A stretch of 64,000 bases of DNA from Thermoanaerobaculia bacterium (GCA_035629865.1 DASPHC010000146.1:53420-117419), one strand, 5' to 3'. Counted from the first letter of the stretch, positions 13,708 through 58,387 are shown. A program made the numbers and translations. The notes: generated by a model from the sequence alone, not told the origin.

Positions 13708-13844
13708 GACGGGGGGCCTCCGGCGGGCGGGCCCGGCCCGCAGCGTTTGTTTTCGCGTGAACCGCGATTCGAGCGAGAGGCGCGCGTTCAGGCTAGGCCA
13801 ACAAACGCGGCGGGCCGGGCCGGCCCGCCGGAGGCCCCCCGTCG
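13708..13844. repeat. Family-1 palindromic element (roughly 140 bp; about 36-bp GC-rich stem and about 50-nt loop), copy 1
   Basis: gcctccggcgggcgggcccggcccgcagcgtttgtt pairs with aacaaacgcggcgggccgggccggcccgccggaggc. Small ORFs with MATNAAGRAGPPEA peptides in the track are artefacts of this repeat. Confidence 0.8.
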
Positions 13845-13857
13845 TCTCTCGCCGTTG

Positions 13858-14661
13858 CTACAACCGTACGATCTGATTGACAGCGGCGACGATCTTCAGC
13901 GACCGGGCCGACCGGCCGAGCGTCACTTCCGACAGCCCGTTCGACATCAGCGCCTTCTGGCCGTGCTTCTGCCACCAGCGCCCGACGAAGATCTGCTTGC
14001 CGATGCGGCCGATCACCAGCTCCCCGCTGGCGGCGCGGCCGCGGGGGCGAAGCTCGACGATCAGCAGGTCCCCGTCCTCGATTCCCTGGTCGCGCATGTT
14101 GTCGCCGCGGGCCCGGAAGACGATTTCACCCTCTTCCACCAGGTTGGGTGGGAAGGCGAGAGTTTCCTTCGACTCCTCGTTGATCGCATCGCCGTGACGG
14201 ATCTCACCAGCGGTGACGATCTGGGCCCACTCCGGACCTTCCCGCACCACACCTCCATTCCCCGGCGTGGGCTGACTGATCCTTCGGATCGGCATGCGCG
14301 GGAACGTGACCTCGGCGTGTGCGCCATCCTGCGAGCCGTTGCCTCCCAGCAGCGTCTCGGCGCGGGCGAGGATCACCTGCGCGCGATGCGCTTCCGCGCG
14401 CGCCTCGCGGATCGTGTCGGCGAGCAGCGGGACGTTGAGCGTGGAGCGTTCCGGCTCGCTCGAACGGACGGCGAGATCGGTGCCGAAGCTGATCGCCGTC
14501 AGGTCCAGCACCTGCGCGACGCGCTGCAGGATATTGATCGACACGTTGGCTCCCTTCTCGAGGGCAGCCAGGTGACGGCGGCTCACTCCGGCGAGCTTGG
14601 CGAGGCGCGCCTGGGTGAGGTTCTTTCGAATCCGGGCTTCTTTGATGGTTTCACCGAGCAT
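13858..14661 (-). CDS. CI/LexA-like repressor: XRE-type HTH plus S24 peptidase (autocleavage) domain
   Basis: N-terminal HTH LTQARLAKLAGVSRRHLAALEKG. The C-terminal S24 Ser/Lys dyad is in GDNM and IGRIGKQ. Confidence 0.8.
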   Translation of the reverse strand: MLGETIKEARIRKNLTQARLAKLAGVSRRHLAALEKGANVSINILQRVAQVLDLTAISFGTDLAVRSSEPERSTLNVPLLADTIREARAEAHRAQVILARAETLLGGNGSQDGAHAEVTFPRMPIRRISQPTPGNGGVVREGPEWAQIVTAGEIRHGDAINEESKETLAFPPNLVEEGEIVFRARGDNMRDQGIEDGDLLIVELRPRGRAASGELVIGRIGKQIFVGRWWQKHGQKALMSNGLSEVTLGRSARSLKIVAAVNQIVRL

Positions 14662-14953
14662 AAATTGGAACTTATAGGTTACTCACTGCGTGAGCGATCG
14701 GCAACACACTTCGCAACACCGGCCGGCGGCGTCAGAGTGGGACGAGTGTGCGAAGGCTCGATCGAAGAGCTGAAACAGAGACGTTCATACAAAGGCACTC
14801 TCGCACACGGAGTGACGCTCAGACACTTTTCCACCCCCTGTGGAGCGGATGAGTGTCGGGCTAGGTTGCGGCGGGATGGAAAGGAGGAAGTCCAGTGTCA
14901 CCTATGAGTTGCGCAATATCGTGCGCGTCCCGTCGACTGAGGAGCAGATCCGG

Positions 14954-14996
14954 ATTGACATCCATCCTGCTCCTCCCTATAGTGCAGGATACTGCA
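14954..14996 (+). promoter_or_regulatory. Sigma70-like promoter (TTGACA-17-TATAGT) with a palindromic operator TGCAG-GATA-CTGCA overlapping the -10, just upstream of the Cro-like gene
   Basis: Read directly from the sequence. Coordinates are accurate to about 1 nt. A second palindrome, CTCAC-TGC-GTGAG, lies around 14688-14700 in front of the divergent repressor. Confidence 0.5.
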
Positions 14997-14997
14997 C

Positions 14998-15219
14998 ATG
15001 ACTACACGTCTCGAGAAGTTCCTCAAGAGCCGGGGAATCAAGCCGGCCCACCTGGCGCGGGAGTCCGGATACAGCCGTCAGCACCTGCTGCGGATCCGGA
15101 CCGGACGGATGGAGCCGACGCGGCGCTGCATCGTGGCGATCGCATCGGCCTGCCGCCGTCTGTCCGGCGAACAGGTGCGGGCGCACGATCTCTTCGACCT
15201 CGAAGGGGAGGATGAGTAG
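14998..15219 (+). CDS. Small XRE-family HTH protein (Cro-like), divergent from the S24 repressor
   Basis: A 73-aa protein containing LARESGYSRQHLLRIRTG. Confidence 0.6.
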   Translation: MTTRLEKFLKSRGIKPAHLARESGYSRQHLLRIRTGRMEPTRRCIVAIASACRRLSGEQVRAHDLFDLEGEDE

Positions 15220-15225
15220 CAGCCA

Positions 15226-15612
15226 TTGCAGCAGGTGGAGCATAGCTCCGGGCTCGCGATGTTCACAATTCGCCGTGTCGCGGTAGTCGAAGGAAACCGC
15301 ACTGCTGGGGAAATGCTGCACACTTTCTTCCGCCTGATGGAGCTGGAGTGCTCCCTGGTGCGCGCCGGTTTCGAGGCCGTTCCCACGCTCCGTAGACTTC
15401 GCCCCGACGTCGTGATCCTCGATCTGGACCTCCCACATCTACAGGCGCTGGAGATCGCACGCGGAATCCGCAGCTTCGAGCCCGGCCTGCCGGTGGTCCT
15501 GCTCACTGACCGCGAGCCCGAAATGGTTGCCTTCGACGCCCCGGTCCTGCGAAAACCGCACGACCGGTTCGAGGAACTGCTTGGGTTACTGGAAGTGATG
15601 CTGCGGCTCTAG
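15226..15612 (+). CDS. Stand-alone response-regulator receiver-domain protein (degenerate acidic pocket)
   Basis: VVILDLDLP has the phospho-acceptor Asp and RKP the conserved Lys. The N-terminal DD is replaced by VVEGN. The start may instead be ATG 15259. Confidence 0.5.
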   Translation: MQQVEHSSGLAMFTIRRVAVVEGNRTAGEMLHTFFRLMELECSLVRAGFEAVPTLRRLRPDVVILDLDLPHLQALEIARGIRSFEPGLPVVLLTDREPEMVAFDAPVLRKPHDRFEELLGLLEVMLRL

Positions 15613-15619
15613 TCGCCGT

Positions 15620-15666
15620 TCATCGCTCATCTCTCGCTCATCTCTCATCTCTCATCTCTCATCTCT
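15620..15666. repeat. Heptanucleotide microsatellite (TCATCTC) x 5
   Basis: ctcatctctcgctcatctctcatctctcatctctcatctctg lies between the receiver gene and the next gene's start. Confidence 0.6.
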
Positions 15667-15755
15667 GTCTTCTCCACTGTTCACCATTCCGTCACTAACC
15701 ACTCACCACCCTTTGCGTACTTACGAACGACTTCGTAGCAAAGTTGGGGGTGTTC

Positions 15756-17972
15756 ATGAAGCGAGCTGCCTGCGTTGCGTTCCTTCTTCTGTCCGTCGTC
15801 CGTCCGTCCGCCGCCCAGCCGGTTGTCCTCGCGCCGACCGAAGCAGCCATCCAGATCGACGGAAACCTCAGCGATGCTGTCTGGCAGAACGCCACGAAAT
15901 ACGAGATCTGGTACGAGACCAATCCGGGCGACAACATCGAGCCGAGCGTGAAAACAGTCGGCTACGTCACCTACGACAGCCGTTTCCTCTACTTCGGCGT
16001 CGAATCGATCGACCCGAATCCCGGCGCGATCAGCGCCCCCTTCGCCGACCACGACCAGATCAGCGGCAACACCGACGACTACGTCGGCGTCCTGCTCGAC
16101 ACCCGCAACGACGGGAAGAGCGGCTATCTCTTTCTTCTCACCGCGCGCGGCGTGCAGTACGACGCCATCACCGACGACGCCGGGAACGGCGAGGACAACT
16201 CACCCGACTTCTTCTGGGACTCGGAGGCGCGCATCCATGAGAAAGGGTGGACCGCGGAAGCGCGCATCCCCTTCTCCTCTCTGCGCTACGACGGTGCCAG
16301 CCCGGAGCAGTGGGGGCTGATGCTCTACCGCAACTACCCGCGCGACCGCCGTTATCAGATGTTCACCAACAAGCTGCCACGCGACAAGAGCTGCTTCGTC
16401 TGCAGTTGGGGGAAGGTCACCGGCCTGCGCGGCCTGCCGACCGGCGACCACATGGTCATCGCCCCCTACGCGACGGCGAACCAGGTCGGGCAGCCGCGCG
16501 ACGAGGTGCTCGGCAATGAGTTCGTGAACCGCCCCGTCGGCGCCGAGGCGGGGCTCGACTTCAAATGGAGCCCGACCGCCGACATGGCCGTCGACGCGAC
16601 GATCAATCCCGACTTCTCGCAGATCGAATCCGACGTCGCGGTGATCTCGACCAACGAGCGTTTCGCCATCTTCATCCCGGAGAAGCGGCCCTTCTTCCTC
16701 GAAGGAGTCGACCTCTTCTCCACCCCCATCCAGGCCGTCTACACCCGCACCATCACCGCGCCGCGCTGGGGCGCGCGCACGACCGGCAAGACCGGCGATT
16801 ACGCCTACACGCTGCTGGTCGCGCAGGACCGCGGGGGCGGCGACGTCATTCTGCCGTCGGCCTTCGGCTCCGACTTCGCGCAGCAGGACTTTTCGTCGCT
16901 CGCCGCGATCGGCCGCCTGCGCCGCGACTTCGGCCAGCGCTCGCACGTCAGCTTCCTCGCCACGACCCGCGAGGCCGAAGGGGGCGCCCACAACCGCGTC
17001 TTCGGTCCCGACTTCCAGTGGCGCATTAACGACAACGACACCCTCACCGGCCAGGTGCTCTACAGCAGCACCCAGAACCCGGACCGCCCCGATCTCAGCG
17101 ACCAGTGGACCGGCCAGAAGCGCGGCGGCCACGCCGCGCACATGTGGTTCTCCCACAACACCGCCAAGAACGACTTTTACGTGCAGGGGAGCGACTACGA
17201 CGGGGAGTTCCGCGCCGATAACGGCTTCGTACCGCAGGTCGGCTGGCGCGGCGGCTACATGGAAGGGGGCCACACCTGGCGCCCCAAGGGGTTCTTCAGC
17301 CGCGTCCGCGCCTTCGGCATGACCGAGTACCAGCAGACGCAGGGCGGCGACCTGCTGTATCGCCTCATGTCGGCCGGCATCGCCGGCGACGGGAAGCGCC
17401 GTTCCTTCACCCGCATCCGCCTGGCGAAAGACTCGGTGGCCGCCGGCATCGGCGAGGTCTTCGACCGCGACCGCATCTATTACCAGGTGCAGTTCGCCGT
17501 CAGCCGCGTCATCAGCTTCCTCAGCTTCGACGGCTGGGTCGGCGACGAAGTCGACTTCTCCCAGAACCGCCTCGGCCGCGGCGCGAGCGTCAACAGCAGC
17601 GCCACCCTCCGCCCCTCGAACCACCTCCAGCTCGGCCTCACCTCCGGCATCCGCTGGCTCAACATCGACGGCGACCGCCTCTTCACCTCCCAGGTCGAAC
17701 GCCTCCGCGCCACCTACACCTTCAACCCCCGCATGTTCGTCCGCGCCATCGTCCAGAACGAGCGCACCAACCGCGACCAGGCCCTCTACGGCTTCGGCCC
17801 CCAATACACCGGCGGCCTCGCCGCCCAAGGCCTCTTCGCCTACAAACTGAACTGGCAGACCGTCTTCTACGTCGGCTTCGGCGACCTCCGCGAAGTAACG
17901 ACCGAGGAAGGGGAGTTCGAGCCCAGCAGCCGGCAGTTCTTCGCGAAGATCAGTTACGCGTTCCAGAGGTAA
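15756..17972 (+). CDS. Secreted CBM9-like/DUF5916-type protein (putative outer-membrane or exported hydrolase-like)
   Basis: Signal peptide MKRAACVAFLLLSVVRPSAAQ. The N-terminal IDGNLSDAVWQNATKYEIWYE is CBM9-like. Family assignment is from memory. Confidence 0.55.
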   Translation: MKRAACVAFLLLSVVRPSAAQPVVLAPTEAAIQIDGNLSDAVWQNATKYEIWYETNPGDNIEPSVKTVGYVTYDSRFLYFGVESIDPNPGAISAPFADHDQISGNTDDYVGVLLDTRNDGKSGYLFLLTARGVQYDAITDDAGNGEDNSPDFFWDSEARIHEKGWTAEARIPFSSLRYDGASPEQWGLMLYRNYPRDRRYQMFTNKLPRDKSCFVCSWGKVTGLRGLPTGDHMVIAPYATANQVGQPRDEVLGNEFVNRPVGAEAGLDFKWSPTADMAVDATINPDFSQIESDVAVISTNERFAIFIPEKRPFFLEGVDLFSTPIQAVYTRTITAPRWGARTTGKTGDYAYTLLVAQDRGGGDVILPSAFGSDFAQQDFSSLAAIGRLRRDFGQRSHVSFLATTREAEGGAHNRVFGPDFQWRINDNDTLTGQVLYSSTQNPDRPDLSDQWTGQKRGGHAAHMWFSHNTAKNDFYVQGSDYDGEFRADNGFVPQVGWRGGYMEGGHTWRPKGFFSRVRAFGMTEYQQTQGGDLLYRLMSAGIAGDGKRRSFTRIRLAKDSVAAGIGEVFDRDRIYYQVQFAVSRVISFLSFDGWVGDEVDFSQNRLGRGASVNSSATLRPSNHLQLGLTSGIRWLNIDGDRLFTSQVERLRATYTFNPRMFVRAIVQNERTNRDQALYGFGPQYTGGLAAQGLFAYKLNWQTVFYVGFGDLREVTTEEGEFEPSSRQFFAKISYAFQR

Positions 17973-17980
17973 CAGGGAAC

Positions 17981-18118
17981 GACGGGAGGCCTCCGGCGGG
18001 CCGGCACGGCCGGCAGCGTTTGTTTCCGCGTGAATCGCGTTTCGAGCGAGAAGCGCGCGCTCAGCCTATGGCAACCAACGCTGCCGGCCGTGCCGGCCCG
18101 CCGGAGGCCTCTCGTCGT
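17981..18118. repeat. Family-1 palindromic element, copy 2
   Basis: Same arms and loop as copy 1. It explains the spurious N-terminal extension of ORF 18020. Confidence 0.8.
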
Positions 18119-18142
18119 CCCTACTCGTATACTTCCGCGCGC

Positions 18143-20206: not shown

Positions 20207-20207
20207 C

Positions 20208-20374: not shown

Positions 20375-20376
20375 GA

Positions 20377-22658: not shown

Positions 22659-22690
22659 CCAGACGACCAACGCAAATCCCGCACGGTCCC

Positions 22691-22889
22691 TTGCTGCCGT
22701 AGGCAGCAAAAGACCTGTAGGCCCGGCCTTCAGGCCGGGTACGACAATCGCCCGCCAGGCGAGTCCGCGGAGCGGGCGACAGAAAAGACCTTCTCTCGTC
22801 TGTCGCCCGCTACGCGGGCTCGAGGATCCGTTCACGGCTTACCCGGCCTGAAGGCCGGGTCTACAGATCTTTAGCTGCCTATGGCAGCA
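22691..22889. repeat. Family-2 nested palindromic element (roughly 200 bp), copy 1
   Basis: Outer arms are ctgccgtaggcagcaaaagacctgtaggcccggccttcaggccggg and its complement. The inner hairpin is gagtccgcggagcgggcgacag...ctgtcgcccgctacgcgggctc. It lies between convergent genes. Confidence 0.75.
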
Positions 22890-22939
22890 GCGAGCGTGGT
22901 TGGCGTTGGTCTTCTGAACGCGTCTCGTGTAGCGCTGCG

Positions 22940-23245
22940 TCAGCGCTCGTACTCTTGGCTGCTGCGCGGCGCGTCCGGCGCCTGCCGGTCCAGCGACTCG
23001 CGGTAGCGCAGGCAGCCGCGCAGAAACTGCGGCCACTCCGGCACGACCGGCACCGGATCGGTCTTCTCCGGCAGCAGTCCCCACAGCGCCGGATGATGCC
23101 AGCAGAGCCCCTGCCCGGTACTGTCGCGATGCTGCCGGATGCCGTCGCGCAGCCGGCGCACTTCGGAGAGCAGCTCCTCGCGGGACATCTGGTCGAGGTC
23201 GGCGTCGATCACTTCGTCTCCTGTGGTTCCGTCACGACGATTCAC
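22940..23245 (-). CDS. Hypothetical protein
   Basis: A 101-aa charged ORF. No motif assigned. Confidence 0.35.
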   Translation of the reverse strand: MNRRDGTTGDEVIDADLDQMSREELLSEVRRLRDGIRQHRDSTGQGLCWHHPALWGLLPEKTDPVPVVPEWPQFLRGCLRYRESLDRQAPDAPRSSQEYER

Positions 23246-23645
23246 GGATCACGAAATCGCCGCCGGGAGATGCCGCTTTCAAAAGCGCGTCCAGCTTATC
23301 TACCGTCGGAACGGCATCACCGCGCTCGTATCGCGCATAGGCGTTGCGTGAAGACGTTCCGAGGCGTTCGGCCACGTCGCGGAGCGATGAGCCACTCGCC
23401 TCGCGCCGTCTCCTGAGGAGCAGCGCAGTCATGGCAGCGGCATCGCTCCCGGAGATTTCAAACTCGCTCTTGCTGCGGGCGTGAACCTGCGCGCTGAAAC
23501 CGTCGCGGCCGACCATGGTCTCCAGCCAGTCGCCGATCATTTCCAGTGCTTCCTTACGGGTACGGCCCTGGGTGATCGCATCGAGCAGAGGAATCTCCGC
23601 CAGCCAGAACCGCCCGTCGCGTGCCACCTTGCCCTCGAATCTCAT
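23232..23645 (-). CDS. hicB: HicB-family antitoxin (RNase-H-like N-domain plus C-terminal HTH)
   Basis: MRFEGKVARDGRFWLAEIPLLDAITQGRTRKEALEMIGDWLE matches the HicB N-terminal pattern. The C-terminal HTH is SLRDVAERLGTSSRNAYARYERG. I trimmed the start to the internal ATG that overlaps the hicA stop. Confidence 0.65.
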   Translation of the reverse strand: MRFEGKVARDGRFWLAEIPLLDAITQGRTRKEALEMIGDWLETMVGRDGFSAQVHARSKSEFEISGSDAAAMTALLLRRRREASGSSLRDVAERLGTSSRNAYARYERGDAVPTVDKLDALLKAASPGGDFVIRESS

Positions 23646-23821
23646 GTCGCCTCCCTGCAGGCACGGCGGAGAATCGCTTGCGCAAGCCGTTCGTTGATCT
23701 CGCGATGCCGAGGGACCGCTTCCTCGCTGCCGCCGTCGGTCCAGACATCGTGCCTGCCGCCGCTCCGGAGGAACCACCAACCACAGGCGGTCAGCCGTTT
23801 CTCCAGGTCGCGCCGCTTCAC
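23642..23821 (-). CDS. hicA: HicA-family mRNA-interferase toxin (not in the ORF track)
   Basis: Hand translation from GTG 23821 gives VKRRDLEKRLTACGWWFLRSGGRHDVWTDGGSEEAVPRHREINERLAQAILRRACREAT. This fits the HicA K.L...GW...R.GSH....P....V.VP.H pattern. The TGA stop overlaps the hicB ATG (ATGA). Confidence 0.6.
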   Translation of the reverse strand: MKRRDLEKRLTACGWWFLRSGGRHDVWTDGGSEEAVPRHREINERLAQAILRRACREAT

Positions 23822-23905
23822 TCAGCTACTGTACACCGATCCGTGGACGGAGTGTAAAGGGGCCGCGCCGCCGTAGAATCAACTGAGACAAGCGGGAGGA
23901 CGACG

Positions 23906-24265
23906 ATGATCAACGGTGCGCACGTCATCATCTACAGCACGAACGCCGAGGCCGACCGCGTGTTTCTGCGCGACGTCCTCGCCCTGCCGAATGTCGATGC
24001 CGGGGAAGGTTGGCTGATCTTCGGCCTGCCGCCTTCGGAGGTGGCTGTCCATCCGGGAGCGGAGAACGACTCACACGAGCTGTACTTCATGTGCGAGAAC
24101 GTGGAGCAGTTCGTCGGGCGGATGAAAGAACACAGCGTTGAATGCGGCGAAGTGCATGACCACGGCTGGGGCTTGCTGGCTCAGGTGACGTTGCCCGGCG
24201 GCGGGAAGCTCGGGGTTTATCAGCCGCGGCATGCGCGGCCGACGTCGGCCCGCGCCTCTCTGTGA
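23906..24265 (+). CDS. Small VOC/glyoxalase-like protein
   Basis: A 119-aa single VOC-type domain. Confidence 0.55.
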   Translation: MINGAHVIIYSTNAEADRVFLRDVLALPNVDAGEGWLIFGLPPSEVAVHPGAENDSHELYFMCENVEQFVGRMKEHSVECGEVHDHGWGLLAQVTLPGGGKLGVYQPRHARPTSARASL

Positions 24266-24274
24266 GACCACGCC

Positions 24275-24436
24275 CCTCCCTGTCATCCTGAGCCGCAGGC
24301 CTGATCCCATAAGCAGCATCCATGGCGGCGAAGGACCCCCTCCGGCTGCACGCGACGCGTTCAACTGCGGGGGGTCCTTCGCCGCCATGCTTTTGCCACG
24401 AAGGACCATTCCTGCGGCTCAGGATGACAGGAGGGA
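24275..24436. repeat. Family-3 nested hairpin element, copy 1
   Basis: Outer stem is cctgtcatcctgagccgcagg paired with cctgcggctcaggatgacagg. Inner stem is catggcggcgaaggaccccctcc paired with ggggggtccttcgccgccatg. It lies between convergent genes. Confidence 0.75.
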
Positions 24437-24449
24437 TTCTTGACTGTGA

Positions 24450-25688
24450 TCACACCAATCCCGACGGCAACCTCGGCGACGACAGCAGCTCTGCAAACAC
24501 CTCCCAGCGCTTCTCCGCATCCCCTTCGCTGCGGCGTTCGACGTAGTTGCGGACGAGGTCTTTGCCGAGGTTGTAGTTGATGACGTAGCTGCGGTACTGG
24601 TCGAAGAACTTCACGCGCTGGCGCGCGCGGGCGGGCTCCATCAACGCATACGTCCTCAGCCACTCCGCGGCCTGCTCGGCGGTGAAGGCCCCGTCGAGGT
24701 AGCGGCGGGCGGCTTCGTTGCCGGCGTAGCCGGTGCGGGAGATGAGGTCGTAGACGCGGTAGTACTGCTCGGCGCGTGCGGGGTCGAGTCCGGCGACCGG
24801 GAAGAGGCGCTCTTTCTCCATCGCCACGCGCTCGTCGGCGGGGAAGGCCACTTCGATCCCGTAGTTCGCGCTCCCTTCGGCGATGAGGGACTGGGCGGAG
24901 AAGAGGGCGTAGACGGAGAACTCCGGCCAGCCGCGGTCGCGCACCAGCGTCTTTTCCAGCAGGGCGTTGTAGACGTGATGGCCGGGATAGCCTTCGTGGC
25001 AGGCGAGGTCGATGGCGCGGTCGATGAAGATCGGGAGGTCGGTGTTGACCTGAATGAGGCTGGTGAAGTTTCCTTGGTACCAGTTGTAGCCGCTCCACGA
25101 TTTGCCGGTCACGTATTCGACGGTGAACGACTCGCCGGCTGGTAACGCCATGTGGTCCGCGGTCTTTTCGCGGCAGACGTCGATGGCCGCACCGAACGTC
25201 GCGTCGAGCTTTTCGCGCGGGATGACGAACTCGCGCCGGAACTGTTCCACCCGCTCGACCAGCGGTCCGCTGCCCGGCAGCTCGGTCTCGATCGCGGCGT
25301 TCAGCGTCCGGAAGTAGTCTTCGCCGTGCGTCGGCGCGACGGCGTCGTAGAGGGCTTTCGACTCTTCGTCGAAGGAGAGCTGCCGTCCCTGCAGGATCTC
25401 GGCGCGGGCGATCAGGGCGTCGGTCTGGCGACGAACGTAGTCGAGCCGCAGGCCGTCGATTGTCTCCGCCGGACGTGCGGTCGCGCCGAGCGTCTCGCGC
25501 AGCGCGACCGCATGGGTGCGGATGGCGTCCAGCGACCGTTTCGCGGCGCGGACTTCGTCGCGCCACGCGGCGGGACCGTAATAAGAGTCGACGTAATCGG
25601 CGTCGTGCTCCCCCATCGCGAGCACGAGCCGGACGTATTGTTCAGCGGCGTCGTTCATCGCGCCGCATCGTATTCCACTCCGGTACAC
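24450..25688 (-). CDS. DUF885-family protein (putative metallopeptidase-like)
   Basis: HEGYPGHHV motif and overall DUF885-like composition. The start may instead be ATG 25658. Confidence 0.65.
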   Translation of the reverse strand: MYRSGIRCGAMNDAAEQYVRLVLAMGEHDADYVDSYYGPAAWRDEVRAAKRSLDAIRTHAVALRETLGATARPAETIDGLRLDYVRRQTDALIARAEILQGRQLSFDEESKALYDAVAPTHGEDYFRTLNAAIETELPGSGPLVERVEQFRREFVIPREKLDATFGAAIDVCREKTADHMALPAGESFTVEYVTGKSWSGYNWYQGNFTSLIQVNTDLPIFIDRAIDLACHEGYPGHHVYNALLEKTLVRDRGWPEFSVYALFSAQSLIAEGSANYGIEVAFPADERVAMEKERLFPVAGLDPARAEQYYRVYDLISRTGYAGNEAARRYLDGAFTAEQAAEWLRTYALMEPARARQRVKFFDQYRSYVINYNLGKDLVRNYVERRSEGDAEKRWEVFAELLSSPRLPSGLV

Positions 25689-25695
25689 ACAGGGG

Positions 25696-25837
25696 ACGAC
25701 GGGAGGCCTCCGGCGGGCGGGCCCGGCCCGCGGCGTTTGTTTTTCGCGTAAACCGCGTTCCGTACGAAGGCGCGCGTTCAGCCTATGGCAACCAACGCTG
25801 CGGGCCGGGCCCGCCCGCCGGAGGCCCCCCGTCGTCC
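25696..25837. repeat. Family-1 palindromic element, copy 3
   Basis: Same family. Confidence 0.8.
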
Positions 25838-25856
25838 CCTGTGTGTTACCCAGCGG

Positions 25857-27732: not shown

Positions 27733-27850
27733 AAGTGGGGGTGAGGGGATGGGACCAATAGGACGAATAGGACCTATGGGACCGATAGGACGGACAGCCT
27801 TCCCACTCGTCCCATCGGTCCCATCAGTCCCATTCGTCCCATCGGTCCTG
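27733..27850. repeat. GGGAC/GTCCC 9-mer palindromic hairpin element
   Basis: atgggaccaataggacgaataggacctatgggaccgataggacgg pairs with tcgtcccatcggtcccatcagtcccattcgtcccatcggtcc. Confidence 0.7.
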
Positions 27851-28932: not shown

Positions 28933-28980
28933 GACCACCTTCGCGAGCCGCGCTGCTCGCAAACGTTCGTTGAAGTCGCG

Positions 28981-29055
28981 GGCCCGTAGCTCAGTGGTAG
29001 AGCACCTGGCTTTTAACCAGAGGGTCGTAGGTTCGATCCCTACCGGGCTCACCAG
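28981..29055 (+). tRNA. tRNA-Lys (anticodon UUU)
   Basis: Cloverleaf by hand. Acceptor stem GGGCCCG/CGGGCTC, anticodon loop CUUUUAA, T-loop TTCGATC, 3' CCA. Confidence 0.9.
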
Positions 29056-29084
29056 CCCGCCCCCGCACGCATGCACCAGTCACG

Positions 29085-29160
<76 letters not shown>

Positions 29161-30197: not shown

Positions 30198-30198
30198 G

Positions 30199-34274: not shown

Positions 34275-34697
34275 TCAGCTCTTTTCGCCCCGCTCCACCG
34301 TCAGCGGCGTGAAGATCTCCGCCTGGAGCAGCCACCCGTCCTTTGTGTAGTGCCATTTGGCGGCGTACACGCCGGCGAGCTCCATCGGGCCGTCGTTGGC
34401 CATGAGGGTGCCGGTCCAGCGGCCGTGTTCTTCGGCCATGCCCCATTCTTCGTTGACGTGGATCTCCTCGGGGGTGCGGCCGTAGGTGGAGGTGGCGTCG
34501 CGGGCGAACATGTCGGCCCAGCTGTTCATGCTCTGCTCCCGCCCGGTGCGCTGCAGGCTGCGGGCGGTGACGACGTGGTAGTCGGGAAGGAAGTAGGCGG
34601 CGATGCCTGCGGGGTCGCGGCGGGTGATGGCGTCGTTGATCGCGGTGCGGGCGGTGCGGATGGCTTCTCGGCTGTCTTGCGTCATCGACGCGATCAT
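34275..34697 (-). CDS. SnoaL-like/NTF2-fold protein (DUF4440-like)
   Basis: Size and composition pattern. Weak assignment. Confidence 0.5.
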   Translation of the reverse strand: MIASMTQDSREAIRTARTAINDAITRRDPAGIAAYFLPDYHVVTARSLQRTGREQSMNSWADMFARDATSTYGRTPEEIHVNEEWGMAEEHGRWTGTLMANDGPMELAGVYAAKWHYTKDGWLLQAEIFTPLTVERGEKS

Positions 34698-34712
34698 ACG
34701 ATCTCAGCCATG

Positions 34713-34788
34713 TGGCCCGGCCTTTTAGTCCGGCCGGCACTCGGGAGGAGCCTGCCGAGAGCCGGCCCGGACTAAAAGGCCGGGCCAC
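34713..34788. repeat. Palindromic hairpin (gtggcccggccttttagtccggccggc ... gccggcccggactaaaaggccgggccac)
   Basis: A perfect roughly 28-bp stem in a divergent intergenic region. Confidence 0.6.
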
Positions 34789-35019
34789 AGGTGGCGGCTT
34801 CCGGACCTCGTGCCGGGTCGGGATGTGGGGGCGGCGCGGGATTGGGCTGCGGGATGGTCTGCGGTTGTGCGGGCGGCTGTTGTGGCGAGTCGGGTTGCGG
34901 CGGGGCGGTCGGGGATGGGCTCGGGTGGGGGATTTCCTGCGGGGTTTCTGTGGCCTCGGCGTTCATGGAGGTGGAGATCGTGCAACACATGTTCCGCGCT
35001 CGAACCGTAGAATTCGTGC

Positions 35020-36240: not shown

Positions 36241-36253
36241 GCAGAACGCATCT

Positions 36254-36462
36254 CTGCTGCCGTAGGCAGCAGGAGATCTGTAGCCCCGGCCTTCAGGCCG
36301 GGGACAGCGGAGACCCACGAAGTGAGCCCGCGTAGCGGGCGACAGAGAAGACCGTCCGCGCGCGTTTCTCGTCTGTCGCCCGCTACGCGGGCTCAAAGAT
36401 CTTCCACGCTTTACCCGGCCTAAAGGCCGGGCCTACAGATCTTTTGCTGCCTACGGCAGCAG
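36254..36462. repeat. Family-2 nested palindromic element, copy 2
   Basis: Same outer and inner arms as copy 1. It lies between convergent genes. Confidence 0.75.
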
Positions 36463-36512
36463 AGAGGCATGCACCGGACTAGAACGGAGAAGACCGACCG
36501 GGGGGCCTCCGG

Positions 36513-37007
36513 TCACTTCTTCTTCGCCCGTGTCCGGGCCGCCTTCTTCGCGGCCGCCGATCGTTCCGCCGGACCCTTCGTACGCGCTGCTTTCTTCGCC
36601 GCGGCCGAGCGCTCTCCGGCCGTACGCTGGCGCGCCGCCTTGCGCGCGTGCGCCGCGAGTGACGGCTTCGACGCCGCCGACTTTCCCTCGTCCTTCAGCG
36701 CGGCAGTCGCCGCACGGGCGCGCTTCGCCGACGGCTTCTTCCGCGTCGAGGCGCTCTTCAGATCCTGCTTCGCGCGCTTGCGCGTCGCGGCCGGAGCCTC
36801 ACCCGGATCGGGAGGCGGCAACTTCACCCCCGCGCGCCGCGCCTTCGATAACCCGATGGCAATCGCCTGTTCGGGAGAGCGCGCTCCATGCTTCCCGTGG
36901 CGGATGTGCTCCATCTCCTCGCGCACGAACTCCCCTGCCTGCGTCGAGGCCGACTTCCCCTCGCGCTTGTCCTTCCTGGCCCGCTCGATCGTCTTCTTTT
37001 CCGGCAT
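36513..37007 (-). CDS. Basic Lys/Ala-rich histone-H1-like protein
   Basis: A structured N-terminal 60 aa followed by an AKK/KKAAR low-complexity tail with a duplicated ERSAAAKKAART. Confidence 0.5.
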   Translation of the reverse strand: MPEKKTIERARKDKREGKSASTQAGEFVREEMEHIRHGKHGARSPEQAIAIGLSKARRAGVKLPPPDPGEAPAATRKRAKQDLKSASTRKKPSAKRARAATAALKDEGKSAASKPSLAAHARKAARQRTAGERSAAAKKAARTKGPAERSAAAKKAARTRAKKK

Positions 37008-37050
37008 GGAGATTTCGCGTGCAACACGTGTTCCGGGCGAGACGCGAGGA

Positions 37051-37193
37051 GACGACGGGAGGCGTCCGGCGGGCGAGCACGGCCCGCTGCGTTTGTTTTC
37101 GCCCGGACCGTGTTCGAGCGACAGGCATGCGTTCAGGCTAGGCCAACAAACGCCGCGGGCCGAGCCCGCCCGCCGGAGGCCCCCCGGTCGTCT
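37051..37193. repeat. Family-1 palindromic element, copy 4
   Basis: Same family. Confidence 0.8.
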
Positions 37194-37205
37194 CTCGTCT
37201 GACCC

Positions 37206-39557
37206 TTACTCCACCTCGTACGTCACGCTGTCCGAGCGTCCGATGTCGTCGACCACCACCACCCGGTGCGTGCCGCGGGCGGGGCGGACGAAGGCGCGGC
37301 GGGTGGGGGGGAGGGAGGCGATGAGGGTGCCGTCGACGTACCAGTAGAGGCGGTTCACCTCGGCGGGGACCTGGGCCTGGAGGAGGATCTCCTGGTAGTC
37401 GATCGGCGCGTCTCCACGGATGCGGTACGGCGTGGTGGCGTCGGGGGAGACGATGCGGGGCGCTTCGTCGGCCGCAACTTCGCTGCAGGCGGCGCTGAGC
37501 GGCGGCATCCCTTCCACGGCCTGCCCCTGCGCGTGCCAGTAGGCGACCAGCTCGGCGGGGTAGACCACCGAGATCTCCGGCTCGTGCGGCCGTGTCGCGA
37601 CGCACTCGCCGGCGAGACGCTCGCGGGTGGTGCGGTCGACGAGGATCCGGCGGTGGTAGGTGCAGCGGCGGAGCTGGGTGCGCTCGGGGATGTAGGGGAT
37701 GGCGATCGTCTTCGCGCAGTCGGGGCCGGGGAGCTCGTGGCTCAGCGCGCAGACGTCGACGCGCTCGATGTCCGCGTACTTCGTGTCGGGACGCGCGGCG
37801 CGGCCTTCGATCGTCCGGAAAAGGTCGAAGAGCAGCGGGGCGGCGTGCTCGGAGCCGGAGATCCCTTTCTGGCCGCGGCCGTCGAAGTTTCCGACCCAGA
37901 CTCCGATCGTGTAGCGCTTCGAGAAGCCGACGCTCCAGGCGTCGCGGTGACCGTACGACGTCCCCGTCTTCCACGCCACGGTCGGCGCTTCTCTCGTGAG
38001 ATCCCATGTCTGCGGGAGGTCGGGGCGTTTCACTTCGCACAGGATCTCGGTGATCATCTGCGACGCCTCGGCGGAGAAGATCCGCTCCCCCTCCGGGGCC
38101 GGTCCGCGGAACATTTGCGCAGGCCGGTGCACGCCTCCCTCGGCGAGGGTGCTGTAGAAGTTGGTCAGGTCGAGCAGCGTGACTTCGCCCGCGCCGAGGA
38201 TCAGCGAGAGGCCGTAGGAACCGGGACGCCGGTCGAGCGTGGAGAGGCCGCCTTTGCGCAGGACGCCGAGAAAGTCGTCGAGACCGACCCGCGCCAGCAG
38301 CCGGACCGCGCTGGCGTTGAGGGAGAGCACCAGAGACTCGCGAACCGTCAGGCGGCCGCGATAGGTGCCGTCGTAGTTCTCGGCGACGTAGCCGGAAAAG
38401 TCGGTGGGGATGTCGAGGAGGTACGAGTCGGGCAGCAGGTGCCCTTCGTCGAACGCCTTCGCGTAGAGGAACGGTTTGAGGGTCGAGCCGGGAGAGCGGC
38501 GGGCGAAGGCGCCGTTGACCTGGCCGTCGAAGCGGCGGTCGAAGAAGTCGGCGGAGCCGACGAGGGCGCGGACGGTGCGGCTCTCGTTCTCGATCACGAC
38601 CACCGCGGCGTTCTCGATGCCGAACGTCCGGAGGGAGCCGATTCGCGCCGCGACCTGCCGTTCGGCGATCTTCTGGAGTCCCTGGTCGAGGGTCGTGAAG
38701 AGACGCGGCGCGCCGCCGCCGCGGGCGACGGCGAGGTCGGTGAAGTGCGGCGCCGTAAACGGCGTGCGCTGCAAGCGGGTGGGGATCGGCTGCAGCAGCG
38801 CTTTCTCGATCTCGGCCGGGGGAAAAGCGCCGCGGCTGCCGAGCTGGCGCAGCACTTCGTCGCGCGCGGCACGGGCCTGTTTCGGATCGCGCAGCGGGTC
38901 GTAGCGATTCGGCGAGCGGGGGAGCGTGGTCAGGAGGGCGATCTCGCCGAGGGAAAGCTGGGAGGGCTTCTTCCCGAAGTAGAAGTACGAGGCCGCGCCG
39001 ATCCCTTCGATGTTCCGGCCGTAGGGAGCGATGTTGATGTAGATCTCGAGCAGCTCGCGCTTCGAGTAGCGCCGCGACAACTGCAGCGCGCGGAACGCCT
39101 CGATCCCTTTGGAGCGGAGGCTGCGCCGCTTCGGCTCGGCCATCCGCGCGATCTGCATCGGGATGGTGGACGCGCCCGAGACGACGCCGCGCGCGCGCAG
39201 GTTCGTCCACGACGCGCGCACGACTGCCAGCGGGTTGACGCCCGGATGCCGGTAGTACCAGCGATCCTCGGAGGCGACGAGCGCCGCGATCAGTTCCGGC
39301 GGCACCTCGTCGAGCGTCACCGGAATCCGGTACTTTTCGTCGCGCGGCAGCACGATGCGAAGCTCCCGCCCTTCACGGTCATAGATCACGGTGGCGGGCG
39401 GAGGGCGGAGCGCGTGGATGGGCGGCGGAAAGACAACGTCTGCGATGAAGGTAGAAAGCAGAAGGCAGAAGGCAGAAGTGAGAAGGATCGCGCAGCGCTT
39501 TGTGCGAGCGCTGCTTCCTTCTGCCTTCTGCCTTCTGACTTCTGCCTTGATTCTCAT
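37206..39557 (-). CDS. pbpC: Penicillin-binding protein 1C (transglycosylase-transpeptidase)
   Basis: Transglycosylase motif EDRWYYRHPGVN. Transpeptidase motifs STLKP, SLN and KTGTS. The ATG overlaps the upstream stop (ATGA). The track's 1180-aa ORF is an artefactual 5' extension. Confidence 0.9.
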   Translation of the reverse strand: MRIKAEVRRQKAEGSSARTKRCAILLTSAFCLLLSTFIADVVFPPPIHALRPPPATVIYDREGRELRIVLPRDEKYRIPVTLDEVPPELIAALVASEDRWYYRHPGVNPLAVVRASWTNLRARGVVSGASTIPMQIARMAEPKRRSLRSKGIEAFRALQLSRRYSKRELLEIYINIAPYGRNIEGIGAASYFYFGKKPSQLSLGEIALLTTLPRSPNRYDPLRDPKQARAARDEVLRQLGSRGAFPPAEIEKALLQPIPTRLQRTPFTAPHFTDLAVARGGGAPRLFTTLDQGLQKIAERQVAARIGSLRTFGIENAAVVVIENESRTVRALVGSADFFDRRFDGQVNGAFARRSPGSTLKPFLYAKAFDEGHLLPDSYLLDIPTDFSGYVAENYDGTYRGRLTVRESLVLSLNASAVRLLARVGLDDFLGVLRKGGLSTLDRRPGSYGLSLILGAGEVTLLDLTNFYSTLAEGGVHRPAQMFRGPAPEGERIFSAEASQMITEILCEVKRPDLPQTWDLTREAPTVAWKTGTSYGHRDAWSVGFSKRYTIGVWVGNFDGRGQKGISGSEHAAPLLFDLFRTIEGRAARPDTKYADIERVDVCALSHELPGPDCAKTIAIPYIPERTQLRRCTYHRRILVDRTTRERLAGECVATRPHEPEISVVYPAELVAYWHAQGQAVEGMPPLSAACSEVAADEAPRIVSPDATTPYRIRGDAPIDYQEILLQAQVPAEVNRLYWYVDGTLIASLPPTRRAFVRPARGTHRVVVVDDIGRSDSVTYEVE

Positions 39558-45335: not shown

Positions 45336-45628
45336 TGCGGGTTCACCCGGTACGCGGAGGCTGGCGCGCCTCAGGCGCGCCGCCGCGGACCGCCGACGTC
45401 ACCGTCGGCCGGTCCGCCCGCGTCCTCGCGGGCACGCTCTTGCGCAAGACTCCCCTACTGCCCAGTTCCGCGGCGTCCCGCCGCCCTCGCCCGGCGGCGA
45501 GACGCCGCCCGTGCCCACGAGGACGTGGGCGGACCGGCCGACGGTGACGTCGGCGGTCCGGCGCTCCGCGTGATGCAAGCGTTGGTTCTTTGGGTGCGTT
45601 CTGCTCAGGTCTACAGACCGGCGCTCCG

Positions 45629-48841: not shown

Positions 48842-48904
48842 GACGCTTGTAGCCGTGTGCCCGTCATTTAACGCCCTTTTGGGGGTGGTGGCTAGCGGGG
48901 TGGT

Positions 48905-49050
48905 CTATGGAGCGCCGGTCTTCGACCGGCCGGTCCGCCGGCATTCTGCCGGCCGTCTCTCGCGGAGAGGTCTTTCCGCAGACTGCCGACCGAAGGTCGG
49001 CGGACCGGCCGGTCGAAGACCGGCGCTCCAGTGAAGACCGGCGCTCCATT
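48905..49050. repeat. Palindromic element (ggagcgccggtcttcgaccggccggtccgccg ... cggcggaccggccggtcgaagaccggcgctcc) plus a direct repeat of gaagaccggcgctcca
   Basis: Read from the sequence, in the promoter region of the 1070-aa gene. Confidence 0.55.
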
Positions 49051-49545: not shown

Positions 49546-49715
49546 CCCCTTTCCTGTCATCCTGAGCCGCAGGATTGATCCGATGGGTAGCAAGCATGGC
49601 GGCGAAGGACCCCCTCCAACAGAGCGAGCAGCGTTCAACTGGAGGGGGGTCCTTCGCCGCCATGCTTTTGGCATGTGGGAGTCATTTTTACGGCTCAGGA
49701 TGACAGGAAGGGGGG
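49546..49715. repeat. Family-3 nested hairpin element, copy 2
   Basis: Same outer and inner stems as copy 1. It lies between convergent genes. Confidence 0.75.
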
Positions 49716-51239: not shown

Positions 51240-51309
51240 GGGGTGGTTATACCAAACGGCGGGGATGTGGTCATTTACCGGGACCACCGTAGTGGTTAAT
51301 GTGACGGTG

Positions 51310-51960: not shown

Positions 51961-52053
51961 CGGCCGGGACGCGCGGCCTTGCGGCGGCATTCGCTGGAGC
52001 AGTTACAATCGCGGTCCGCGCCGGCAGCACTTCGAGCGACAGGAGAATTCACG

Positions 52054-53459: not shown

Positions 53460-53468
53460 CGGCGCAAG

Positions 53469-53514
53469 AGAACCGACCGGGAGGCCTCCGGCGGGCCGGC
53501 CCGGTCGGTTTCTC
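53469..53514. repeat. Short hairpin sharing the terminal motif of family 1 (gggaggcctccggcgggccgg)
   Basis: gagaaccgaccggg...cccggtcggtttctc. Confidence 0.5.
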
Positions 53515-53743
53515 GTGTTCCCATAAGGCGCTTCAAACGTGACGCCCGTCATCATCGGCCGCGGAATCGTCATGCTAGATTCGCCTCCTCTCTCGACAAC
53601 CACCTGGAGGCTCGCATGCGTCTGTCCGCGATCGTTCCCGTTCTCGCGATTGCTCTCGCTCCCACGGTTCTCGGTAACACCATCACGTCAACGGTCTCGG
53701 CGACTCGCTGGCCACGAACGGCGTCTGCACGCTCCGCGAGGCG

Positions 53744-55723: not shown

Positions 55724-55772
55724 TCTGCGGCGTGGAGCGCCGGTGGATATTGCCGGCGCTCCACCCACCCGG

Positions 55773-55917
55773 GGACGACGAAGGGCCTCCGGCGGGCGGG
55801 CACGGCCCGCAGCGTTGGTTGCCATAGGCTGAACGCACGCTTCTCGCGCTGAACGCGGTCCGGGCGAAAACAAACGCTGCGGGCCGTGCCCGCCCGCCGG
55901 AGGCCCCCTCGTCGTCC
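55773..55917. repeat. Family-1 palindromic element, copy 6 (inverted orientation)
   Basis: The loop reads as the reverse complement of the other copies. The flanks extend the palindrome (cacccacccggggacgacg / cgtcgtcccgggtgggtgg). Confidence 0.8.
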
Positions 55918-55933
55918 CGGGTGGGTGGAGCGG

Positions 55934-58189
55934 CTACCGTCGCGCCGCTCTCACGCGTCCTGCCAGCTTCGCCACGTACGCGCGTTCCACCGTGCCGGTA
56001 TGCGTCTGCGGCGACGGATACCAGCGCGTACTGTAGGCGAGCCAGACGTGCGCTCCGTCGAATGCGACGTCGCTGATCCTCGGGGTATCAGAGCCGCTGA
56101 GGACGAGGGCTGGCGAGGCCTTCGGCGTCCCTTCGCCGTCGAGGAAGATCGCCCGCGTCTCGCCCTCCAGCCTGCCACTCCCGGTGGGGGACGGCGTCGC
56201 CTGCGGCGTGTACAGCACGGTCGCGCCGCCGGCGCTCTTCACGATCCGGACCTCGATCGCGTTCCCGGGGATGGCCAGCTCGGACGGCGTGCCGAGGGCC
56301 TCGCCTGCGAGGTTGAAACGATGGGAGAAGAAGGACGGGCCGTTGCGGACGACGGCGACCAGCGTGTCGTCCAGGAGGACCGCGTCGTCGACGGCCTGAT
56401 TGCGGACCAGCGTCTTTTCCTCGGCCACCGCACCATCGGCGCCGAGCGTCGTCAGCCGCTCCTCGAACGGAAGGTACGTGCAGAAACGGCCATAGCAGGG
56501 GGGACTGAGCTGCTGATGCCACACCAGGCGGAACCCGCCGCTGTCGGCGAGGAGCGCGATCGGCTGCTGCGAGAGACCGATGTCGGCGGTCAGGCCCTTC
56601 GGGTCGATCTCCACCGCGCCGCCTGCCGGAATGGCTGCCGGAATGACGGAGGTGAAGATCCTGGTCACCAGCGGATGGCTCGCCTGCTGGCGCCACGCGA
56701 CGAGGAACGAGTCTCCGCGCGCCGCCACGATCGGAGTGCGGCCGCCGGGTGCGATGTCGAAGCCGTGGGCGTCGAGCAGCTCCCCGGCCTCCGTGACCCG
56801 GGCGCCGCGCACGCCGCGGTCGGCTTCTTCCCACACCAGGAGGTACGTATCGCCGTTCGACGCGATGCGCATGCTGTCCAGCCACGACCCCACGCCGGCC
56901 ACGCGGATCCCGCCGCCGTCGAGCGGGCTGCCGCCGCGGGAGAGGCGTCCTGCATAGACGGCTCCCGTCTCGTGCCAGGCCGCGAGCACGTTCGACGTTC
57001 CCACCGCGATGGCCACGTTGCGCTGCGGCAGGTAGATCTCGGAGGAGAAGAGCTCCTCTTTCACCCGCGGTGTCGACGACGGCCGGATGACGAACTTCTC
57101 ACCGTAGGCCAGGAGGAGAAAGATCCGTCCGTTCGAGGCCACCGCCATTGGCCTGTGCCAATCCTGCTCCGGCCCGACCGCGAACGTGTCCAGCACCTGG
57201 CCGGTCCCGCTCACGACCGCGGCGTACGGCTGCACGGGATCGGTGTCGAGGCGCATATCCCGGTTCCAGAGCACGAGGTGCGAGACGCCGTCCCAGGCGA
57301 TGGCGGCGTCCGTCGGGTTGCTCTCGGTGGTGAGGCGAAAGGTTTCGGGAGCGCCCTCGGCGATTCGGGCGCCGTGGACGCCGCCGGGGGTGGTCCAGAC
57401 TACGACGAAGGCGTTGCCATTCCACGAGACGGCGGGCTTCATCGCCTCCAGATAGCGTTCCGGAAAACCGTCGAACTGCTCCGGAATCGGAAGCGACGCG
57501 AGGAGCTGCGGCGCGCCGAGGCTCTCTCCCGACGCGCTGAAACGCCACGCGTAGAGCAGATCCTCGCTGTCTCCGCGGATGCTTTCCCACACCAGCAGGA
57601 AGCCGCCGCCGCCCGCCGCCACCCGCGCGAGGCGGATGTGATCGCCCGCCGGCAATGGCGTGCTCGTCTCGACCCGCAGTTGATGGCTCAGGAGGACGAA
57701 CGAGATGGTATTGGCAGTGCCGTCGCCCATCACCGCCGCATAGCGCTGGCCGTTCCACGCCAGCGACCGGTGGAAACCGAGGTGCGCCGGGAAGAGCTCG
57801 CCCGCGCGCTCGGTGTGCCCGTCCTCCTCCACCGCGAGCGGAAACGTCCCCATGTGCTCCGACGGCGCGAGCGTGAGGTATCTCTGGCCGTCCCACACGG
57901 CCGGCGATGCGTAGTCAGGACGCCATGTTGCGTGGACCGGGAATCCGCTCCGGTCGATCAGCTCGCCCTCGGCGTCGAGGCGCGCGCCATAGATATCGGT
58001 GTTGCCGTACCGGTCGTCATTCCACACGGCGAGGAACTCGTCGCCGTTGGTGGTGATGTACGGCTCGAACGCCACCACGCCCGGCCGCTTCACCGGCTCC
58101 GCGATCGGTTGCCTTGCATGGGAAACGCTCGGCGTCTGTGCGGATGCGGTGAAGACCAGGAGGAGGAGGGCGAGGAATCGGGTGAGCAC
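55934..58189 (-). CDS. Secreted repeat protein, paralog A
   Basis: GTG start chosen by homology to paralog B (VLTRFLALLLLVFTASAQ). Repeated W-rich blocks (SWNGNAFVVVWTT, ASNGDTYLLVWEE). C-terminus AYVAKLAGRVRAARR. Confidence 0.6.
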   Translation of the reverse strand: MLTRFLALLLLVFTASAQTPSVSHARQPIAEPVKRPGVVAFEPYITTNGDEFLAVWNDDRYGNTDIYGARLDAEGELIDRSGFPVHATWRPDYASPAVWDGQRYLTLAPSEHMGTFPLAVEEDGHTERAGELFPAHLGFHRSLAWNGQRYAAVMGDGTANTISFVLLSHQLRVETSTPLPAGDHIRLARVAAGGGGFLLVWESIRGDSEDLLYAWRFSASGESLGAPQLLASLPIPEQFDGFPERYLEAMKPAVSWNGNAFVVVWTTPGGVHGARIAEGAPETFRLTTESNPTDAAIAWDGVSHLVLWNRDMRLDTDPVQPYAAVVSGTGQVLDTFAVGPEQDWHRPMAVASNGRIFLLLAYGEKFVIRPSSTPRVKEELFSSEIYLPQRNVAIAVGTSNVLAAWHETGAVYAGRLSRGGSPLDGGGIRVAGVGSWLDSMRIASNGDTYLLVWEEADRGVRGARVTEAGELLDAHGFDIAPGGRTPIVAARGDSFLVAWRQQASHPLVTRIFTSVIPAAIPAGGAVEIDPKGLTADIGLSQQPIALLADSGGFRLVWHQQLSPPCYGRFCTYLPFEERLTTLGADGAVAEEKTLVRNQAVDDAVLLDDTLVAVVRNGPSFFSHRFNLAGEALGTPSELAIPGNAIEVRIVKSAGGATVLYTPQATPSPTGSGRLEGETRAIFLDGEGTPKASPALVLSGSDTPRISDVAFDGAHVWLAYSTRWYPSPQTHTGTVERAYVAKLAGRVRAARR

Positions 58190-58236
58190 GAGGTTGATAC
58201 GTCGATCGCGCTGTATTCGTCTGCGATTCGCCCACA

Positions 58237-58387
58237 GGAAACCGACGAGAAGCCTCCGGCGGGCCGGCACGGCCGGCAGCGTTTGTTTTCGCCCGGACCG
58301 TGTTCCGTGAGAGAGCGCGCGTTCAGCCTTGGGCAACCAACGCTGCCGGCCGTGCCGGCCCGCCGGAGGCCTCCCGTCGGTTTCCTG
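58237..58387. repeat. Family-1 palindromic element, copy 7
   Basis: Same family. It lies between the two paralogs. Confidence 0.8.

Follow-up and report, generated by a model that had tools for sequence, protein, structure and literature searches.

What is the long palindrome that recurs between the genes of this Thermoanaerobaculia bacterium, and how did it come to occupy so many sites? The question is raised by a 64,000-nt stretch of DNA (GCA_035629865.1 DASPHC010000146.1:53420-117419; at its full length, the window), in which copies of one element lie dispersed between positions 13,708 and 58,387. The structural and comparative data identify it as a new family within a type of bacterial repeat already described, the doublet of repetitive extragenic palindromic (REP) units. 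It is probably a non-autonomous, hairpin-forming REP doublet (REPIN) that has moved as single-stranded DNA.

The copies in the window were located by two methods. A search with a 36-nt stem consensus, taken from an earlier sequence-only reading and allowing at most 3 mismatches, returned 11 arms, which pair up at six loci; dinucleotide shuffles returned 0.00. With filters off, a covariance model of 34 family members gave exactly six full copies over the whole window, each of ~150 bp (Table 1). Both results agree with the sequence-only reading, which had placed six full copies and one decayed relic at these positions, and frame analysis of third-codon-position GC content (GC3) together with Pfam confirms its statement that all copies are intergenic. 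The relic is a weak partial match (nhmmer E ~1e-4; covariance model, 13 bits). Its inner cassette is gone, as is most of its right arm, but it still forms a 14-bp hairpin. Copy 4 is the most diverged of the six. Copy 5 is the only one with inverted spacer polarity; the inverted copy lies at 55773 rather than at 58237, and the earlier label "copy 6" for it is correct only if the relic is counted.

The element is non-coding and consists of two inverted REP-type units (45-nt arms) around a spacer. Its order is: a purine-rich outer end, GRGGRACGACGRGRG; an arm, GCCTCCGGCGGGC-(GCSGGC-NCG-GCCSGC)-AGCGTTTGTT; the spacer; and the mirror-image arm. The outer ends read GRACGACG...CGTCGTY in nearly all copies, and the 45-nt arm terminates in ...CGTCGTC. 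An inverted-repeat scan of the window gives arms of 38-57 nt that are 88-97% complementary and 42-48 nt apart. The near-perfect pairing proposed earlier is therefore sustained, and the proposed stem length of ~36 bp is not. Within each arm lies a second, smaller hairpin, GCSGGC-NCG-GCCSGC, with a 6-bp stem made entirely of G/C pairs and a loop of 3 nt.

This inner hairpin appears to be maintained by paired changes. The pattern used to collect arms from metagenomes permitted all four combinations at the S..S positions. Among the arms of real elements, these positions are complementary in 142 of 143 (C..G in 76, G..C in 66), the sole non-complementary pair being that of the right-arm hairpin of copy 1 (13810-13824). 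Outside elements, 30 of 49 pattern matches are non-complementary; the 49 single-arm matches in metagenomes were set aside as chance matches in GC-rich coding DNA. Both arms carry the same variant in 53 of 54 copies, and L143, one of the collected loci (L numbers), holds a further variant, GCCGGT-GTG-ACCGGC, that is compensated at all four positions.

Folding of the whole element is consistent with this arrangement. In an alignment of 34 sequences, pairing reaches 99.2% in the "clover" fold and 96.7% in the long hairpin, with changes on both sides in seven hairpin pairs. None of 500 shuffles matches either fold in percent paired or covariation score, and all slid controls are beaten. As single-stranded DNA, the element reaches -81.6 kcal/mol (z = -14). 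Wobble pairs bear on which strand folds. On the sense strand of the upstream gene, G.U-type wobbles and A.C-type mismatches are about equally common (69 versus 70), whereas on the element's own spacer-standard strand the counts are 166 versus 109 (p = 7e-4, with related copies treated as independent). An asymmetry that follows element polarity is expected if one DNA strand is the active form. Hairpin formation is thus favoured along element polarity rather than transcription, and a single-stranded DNA intermediate fits better than a function in mRNA.

Comparison of relatives shows that individual sites can be occupied or empty. In the relative L145 (83% nucleotide identity), the BlaR1-like gene and the conserved 402-aa gene stand in the same order as around copy 3, separated by a junction of 24 nt (TAA GAAGAAGTAATACG ATG) without an element. 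In the window, the same junction measures 198 nt and is made up of copy 3 and its outer palindrome, with the downstream spacer GGAGTGGAATACG kept. L142 carries a copy 30 nt upstream of the 402-aa gene, and L143/L144 (87% identity) carry none. Past the stop codon of the 402-aa gene, L105, L142 and L143/L144 carry the element; this site is empty in L145, L141 and L147-L155, and filled by a different palindrome in the window. No direct repeat is present at either clean junction (window versus L145; L142 versus L143), where the flanks are 13-17% diverged. The element has been gained or lost at sites with conserved flanks, without visible target duplication. Two further pairs, L105 versus the window and L012 versus L020, were rejected as clean empty sites because gene order differs.

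The family is common among the Thermoanaerobaculia (Acidobacteriota) of soils. When one genome per species was scanned, only Acidobacteriota yielded true copies: on several contigs in each of three Thermoanaerobaculia metagenome-assembled genomes, and on one contig in a fourth acidobacterial assembly. At least 119 metagenome stretches match the arm motif, mostly from soil and rhizosphere samples, and a hidden Markov model search of the collected loci gave 92 matches, 70 of them full copies. One metagenome contig, L102, matches the window at 99.8% identity and includes the orthologous copies 5 and 6. The PBP1C and the conserved 402-aa protein encoded in the window share 100% identity with proteins annotated on a 222-kb contig of a Thermoanaerobaculia metagenome-assembled genome. 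A plasmid search gave no match, and the 4.7 kb of the source contig to the left of the window hold no further copy. The sequence-only reading had allowed that the element might be a local duplication only; dispersal over many contigs and related genomes shows that it is not.

These structural properties are those of REPINs, which are inverted REP doublets that form hairpins and occur with RAYT transposases, for example in Pseudomonas fluorescens SBW25 and in the BIMEs of E. coli (Bertels & Rainey 2011, PMC3116915). As in REPINs, the element has: two inverted, self-folding small-palindrome units that are better conserved than the spacer between them; a long hairpin, whether as single-stranded DNA or as RNA, an alternative "clover" fold and compensatory changes; and an extragenic position, many copies per genome, persistence at orthologous sites and mobility without target duplication. 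Unlike REPINs, its arms measure 45-57 nt rather than roughly 25, its REP hairpin has only 6 bp and a 3-nt loop, its spacer bears a conserved asymmetric mini-hairpin, and its inner cassette is replaced at fixed sites. The host also differs, being acidobacterial, and a cognate RAYT is putative.

If the element is a REP doublet of this kind, it would be cut and rejoined as single-stranded DNA by a hairpin-recognising HUH tyrosine transposase of the RAYT or TIRYT type, presumably encoded by a single gene elsewhere in the genome. Arms would be homogenised, spacers flipped and cassettes swapped when the long arms recombine or when replication switches template between them. Copies may persist mainly just past stop codons because such sites tolerate insertions. 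A 45-60-bp hairpin placed there would be transcribed and could, as a by-product, protect the upstream mRNA or end it; terminating or stabilising effects on the mRNA would be secondary.

Several points weigh against movement as a single-stranded REP doublet. No RAYT/Y1 transposase gene was found in the window (Pfam, ~40 open reading frames) or in ~0.85 Mb of collected loci. The collected loci were searched by tblastn with an E. coli RAYT query and scanned for the HUH...Y..NP motif, a weak negative because a RAYT is expected once per genome. With 6 bp of G/C only and a loop of 3 nt, the small hairpin departs from the CGTC and GTAG REP families as described. Each presence/absence event may be either an insertion or a precise deletion, and the wobble asymmetry carries the caveat of counting related copies as if they were independent. 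Finally, template switching between inverted-repeat arms, described in PMC8604942, PMC13100816 and PMC8794818 as homogenising arms, inverting spacers and expanding arms, can itself make coordinated arm changes, so such changes alone are no proof of selection on structure. The arm changes seen here could be mutational in this way, with no protein recognising the small hairpin (PMC8794818, PMC8604942).

Position relative to genes raises a different possibility, namely that the element is a host RNA element, a 3'-end (perhaps bidirectional) terminator or mRNA stabiliser kept for its function, with spread being secondary. At least 50 of 59 assessable copies have, no more than ~30 nt from their core, the end of an open reading frame (ORF) whose GC3 is of coding type; the stop-to-core distances in the window are 8, 1, 16, 11, 18 and 11 nt. 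Of 75 gene-facing sides, 27 have the stop codon immediately next to the purine-rich end (TRR|GRGGRACGACG), compared with 8 of the 57 free sides; convergent genes flank 14-19 copies, and relatives hold plain hairpins at the same post-stop sites (L137/L138 and L150, detailed below). The inner hairpin followed by GTTTGTTTT scores as terminator-like. This T-rich tract, however, faces the upstream gene in only about half of the copies (15 of 34), the tail after the full hairpin is C/T-rich rather than U-rich, and the wobbles show no preference for the transcribed strand. Nor is the position obligatory: copy 3 occupies an operon-like junction between a stop codon and the Shine-Dalgarno of the next gene, exactly where L145 has only 24 nt, and the L142 copy lies between divergently transcribed genes. 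A terminator or stabiliser would also leave 150 bp of shared sequence and the hairpin constraint within each arm unexplained, and this explanation is rather unlikely. The separate idea that the element end supplies stop codons was rejected: abutting TRR is enriched on gene-facing sides only, and the arms are without stop codons.

Comparison of orthologous sites shows that the inside of the element turns over. Outer arms and position are kept, and relatives differ in the inner cassette, which comprises REP variant, spacer type and spacer orientation. The pair L066/L110, with flanks 91-94% identical, is the one pair with two comparable sites; at both, one genome has G..C and one spacer type, the other has C..G and another type, so that copies agree within each genome. 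L039, L120 and L117 carry three different cassettes at one site, L051 and L088 have a short and a long spacer at one site, and L024 and L036 have opposite spacer orientation at one site. Such turnover amounts to concerted evolution, whether through re-insertion, gene conversion or template switching.

The flanks of the element are in part palindromic. Sequence beyond the conserved core is unique to each locus, yet in ~40% of copies it is mirrored across the element (mean extension score 5.2 versus a null of 1.4), over more than 40 nt in L058. The last 12 coding nucleotides before the stop are mirrored at 8 or more of 12 positions on the far side in 21 of 69 cases, compared with 9.5% in a null drawn across copies. 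Pre-existing hairpins occur at such sites: in L138 and L137 they take in the stop codon and last codons of pbpC, and in L150 a plain 14-bp hairpin stands in the place that the element holds in L142/L143. However, the empty allele in L145 lacks the outer palindrome of copy 3. Mirroring may reflect insertion into hairpin centres, outward growth by template switching, or longer subtypes (motifs TCCGCCCAC and ATTCT/AGAAT). Two other explanations were rejected. A flank palindrome that ends at the stop codon shows no correlation (rho = 0.16), and the outer palindromes are not another repeat family, as flanks match only themselves or orthologues.

The small hairpin over the pbpC stop in L138 (3275-3300) reads GTGGAG TGA CTTCCAC. 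In L137 (2515-2550) a perfect 16-bp hairpin, GTGGAGTGAAGGACCGCC/GGCGGTCCTTCACTCCAC, mirrors the last two pbpC codons and the stop; its GC-rich centre is not a repeat among the collected loci. The hexamer ATTGTA recurs in many left flanks.

In a further model, the mobile unit would be the inner cassette alone (two REP hairpins and spacer). A structure-specific enzyme would home this cassette into the centres of gene-end hairpins; nested palindromes would grow from inside, and template switching would extend them outward, mirroring unique flanks and even stop codons. We consider this model unlikely.

The sequence-only reading had proposed an active or recently active MITE/REP-like element. Its REP-like, mobile part is supported by the inverted hairpin doublet, the dispersal and the presence/absence polymorphism. 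A strict miniature inverted-repeat transposable element (MITE), derived by internal deletion from an insertion sequence with a DDE transposase and moved by cut-and-paste with target-site duplication, would account for the long terminal inverted repeats, small size, lack of coding capacity, high copy number and presence/absence polymorphism. It is nevertheless quite improbable, as the two sites with an empty allele have no flanking direct repeat, no parent insertion sequence was found (the window has no transposase, and in the collected loci no arm pair more than 400 bp apart encloses a gene), and a DDE model leaves the internal hairpin of each arm unexplained. The ERIC, Correia and RPE-type MITEs are likewise imperfect intergenic palindromes of 100-170 bp that are co-transcribed with neighbours and create false ORFs, but they have target duplications (TA for Correia) and far less perfect stems, and they share no sequence similarity with the element.

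The spacer bears on the remaining alternative. Among the six window copies, pairwise identity is 0.91-0.92 in the arms and 0.78 in the spacer, and over 34 copies spacer identity is 0.72; the ~50-nt loop reported as conserved is so in part, and less than the arms. Across the family, the spacers fall into unrelated classes (~30-34, 66, 78 and 88 nt) that share just one mini-hairpin (GSC-NNN-GSC, then AAC) adjoining one arm. This asymmetric module sets element polarity, and its middle pair covaries (CG 20, GC 13). A structured non-coding RNA gene (small RNA or cis-regulator) with the conserved loop as its functional part, also suggested by the sequence-only reading, could draw on that 3-bp mini-hairpin and the spacer identity among window copies, but is highly improbable: the spacer is less conserved than the arms, belongs to unrelated classes and is swapped or flipped at orthologous sites, which by that reading's own criterion speaks against a non-coding RNA; with respect to the upstream gene its polarity is random (15 sense, 19 antisense); folded on its own, the window spacer does not outdo shuffles (z = -0.16); and no Rfam family reaches its gathering threshold, the best, h2cR (20 bits versus a gathering score of 70, E = 0.13), being rejected as a generic long-hairpin match.

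With the REP doublet as the preferred explanation, the element can be placed among described families. CGTC-tagged REPs form head-to-head dimers with conserved spacers and have no known dedicated transposase (Di Nocera, De Gregorio & Rocco 2013, PMC3733652). Most REP dimers are located less than 20 bp from the 3' end of an ORF, between genes in tandem or convergent arrangement (PMC3733652). The element resembles these dimers in its terminal ...CGTCGTC, its conserved spacers and its head-to-head position near ORF 3' ends between tandem or convergent genes; as with them, some dimers lie inside longer palindromes. Stem and loop dimensions differ: families CGTC-1 to CGTC-4 have 8-9-bp stems that start with A/T pairs, 4-5-nt loops and an unpaired tag (PMC3733652), whereas the element has a 6-bp stem of G/C only, a 3-nt loop, and tags of the two units that pair together.

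In the same survey, Acidobacteria are represented only through RAYT-like (TIRYT) genes and their terminal inverted repeat (TIR) families (PMC3733652). TIRYT genes with long terminal inverted repeats occur in Acidobacteria such as Koribacter versatilis, and TIR families are moderately abundant, long inverted-repeat dimers proposed to be mobilised by IS200-type tyrosine transposases (PMC3733652). The element shares with them the phylum and the dimeric arrangement of long inverted-repeat units. Compared by description, the GGGGWSAS motif shared by TIR families is merely approximated by GGGGACGA, and no TIRYT gene adjoins any copy examined. Integron attC sites were also considered and rejected: the outer ends are without RYYYAAC/GTTRRRY, the copies do not form a cassette array of uniform orientation, and the window encodes no integrase.

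Other palindromes accompany the element. At least ten further long hairpin elements of different families lie in the window, several of which begin 8-34 nt past a stop codon; the genome accordingly hosts many palindromic repeat families at gene ends. The hairpins at 36248 and 22692 have a nested inner hairpin in common, and those at 24279 and 49546 share the arm CCTGTCATCCTGAGCCGCAGG. Palindromes with heptamer arms (tandem repeats of GGGACNN and GCAGAAG type) lie at 6870-6964, 27752-27848 and 39445-39551 in the window and at 4940-5090 in L139, and heptamer arrays follow the pbpC gene in a relative. The gap between the abhydrolase gene and the 402-aa gene is an overlap or at most 73 nt in L147-L155 and 1.8 kb in the window (22660-24450), where it contains palindromic elements and small ORFs without a Pfam match. 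Directly beside element ends, TACAAT/TATAAT/TAGAAT boxes occur 6-9 nt before start codons, which suggests leaderless-type promoters for the downstream genes.

Elsewhere in the window, positions 3262-5553 (-) encode a STAND-like protein with TIR-domain, AAA and TPR, of the anti-phage-defence type, and a caspase-like Peptidase_C14 protein lies just past the left edge (L146). Two adjacent tRNA genes (28980-29051 and 29084-29156) are followed at 29-33 kb by a region of lower GC (0.63) whose ORFs mostly have no Pfam match.

Table 1. Positions of the element copies, their parts and other palindromic features (window coordinates unless a locus is named)
Feature	Position	Strand	Details
Copy 1, full element	13700-13850	+	Between tandem (-) genes: 8 nt past stop (13858) of HTH-S24 gene, 22 nt ahead of start (13678) of beta-lactamase-family gene
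Copy 1, left arm	13706-13751	+	
Copy 1, left-arm REP-type hairpin	13727-13741	+	GCGGGC-CCG-GCCCGC
Copy 1, spacer	13752-13799	+	
Copy 1, mini-hairpin	13791-13799	+	GGC-TAG-GCC, 3' end of spacer
Copy 1, right arm	13800-13845	+	
Copy 2	17973-18123	+	Begins 1 nt past stop (17972) of DUF5916/CBM9 gene; M13 peptidase gene next
Copy 3	25682-25850 (core 25690-25840)	+	Outer palindrome GGTACACACAGGGG / CCCCTGTGTGTTACC; between BlaR1-like gene stop (25857) and Shine-Dalgarno and start (25658) of conserved 402-aa gene
Copy 4	37046-37195	+	11 nt past PBP1C stop (37206); DUF6496 gene (36513-37007, -) next
Copy 5	55757-55932 (core 55770-55921)	-	Outer palindrome GCTCCACCCACCCGGGG / CCCGGGTGGGTGGAGC; between convergent genes (stops 55723, 55934)
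Copy 6	58231-58391 (core 58236-58385)	+	11 nt past stop (58396) of 742-aa gene, upstream of next (-) gene
Relic	53469-53520	.	Left outer arm GAGAACCGACCGGGAGGCCTCCGGCGGGC fused to outermost right end CCGGTCGGTTTCTC
Other long hairpin	10858-10989		
Other long hairpin	22692-22889		Inner hairpin 22760-22822
Other long hairpin	24279-24431		
Other long hairpin	34697-34803		
Other long hairpin	36248-36468		Inner hairpin 36323-36395
Other long hairpin	45376-45570		
Other long hairpin	48898-49039		
Other long hairpin	49546-49714		
Box beside element end	13685-13690	-	Start codon 13678
Box beside element end	L066 ~290-310		
Box beside element end	L020 ~2745-2760		

The element has practical consequences for work on these genomes. 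It breaks short-read assemblies, contigs ending inside it, and it creates false ORFs and false N-terminal extensions. The false small ORF noticed earlier, MATNAAGRAGPPEA, is indeed a genuine reading frame that begins in the spacer of copy 2, at 18068. Two short-read (Logan) contigs of the same organism illustrate how repeats fragment assemblies: L017 (window 13821-15663) ends inside an arm of copy 1, and L146 (window 1-5810) ends inside a tandem repeat near 5810. The element is at the same time a convenient marker for Thermoanaerobaculia genomes.

As a REP doublet, the family would extend REPIN-type repeats to the Thermoanaerobaculia, an uncultured but widespread soil lineage. If movement of the inner cassette alone were true, the genome would hold a self-renewing system that builds and remodels 3'-end hairpins genome-wide. 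The orthologous-site comparisons constitute a natural data set on whether selection or template switching lies behind arm homogenisation, spacer inversion and palindrome growth, and they bear on the long-standing question of "compensatory" hairpin evolution.

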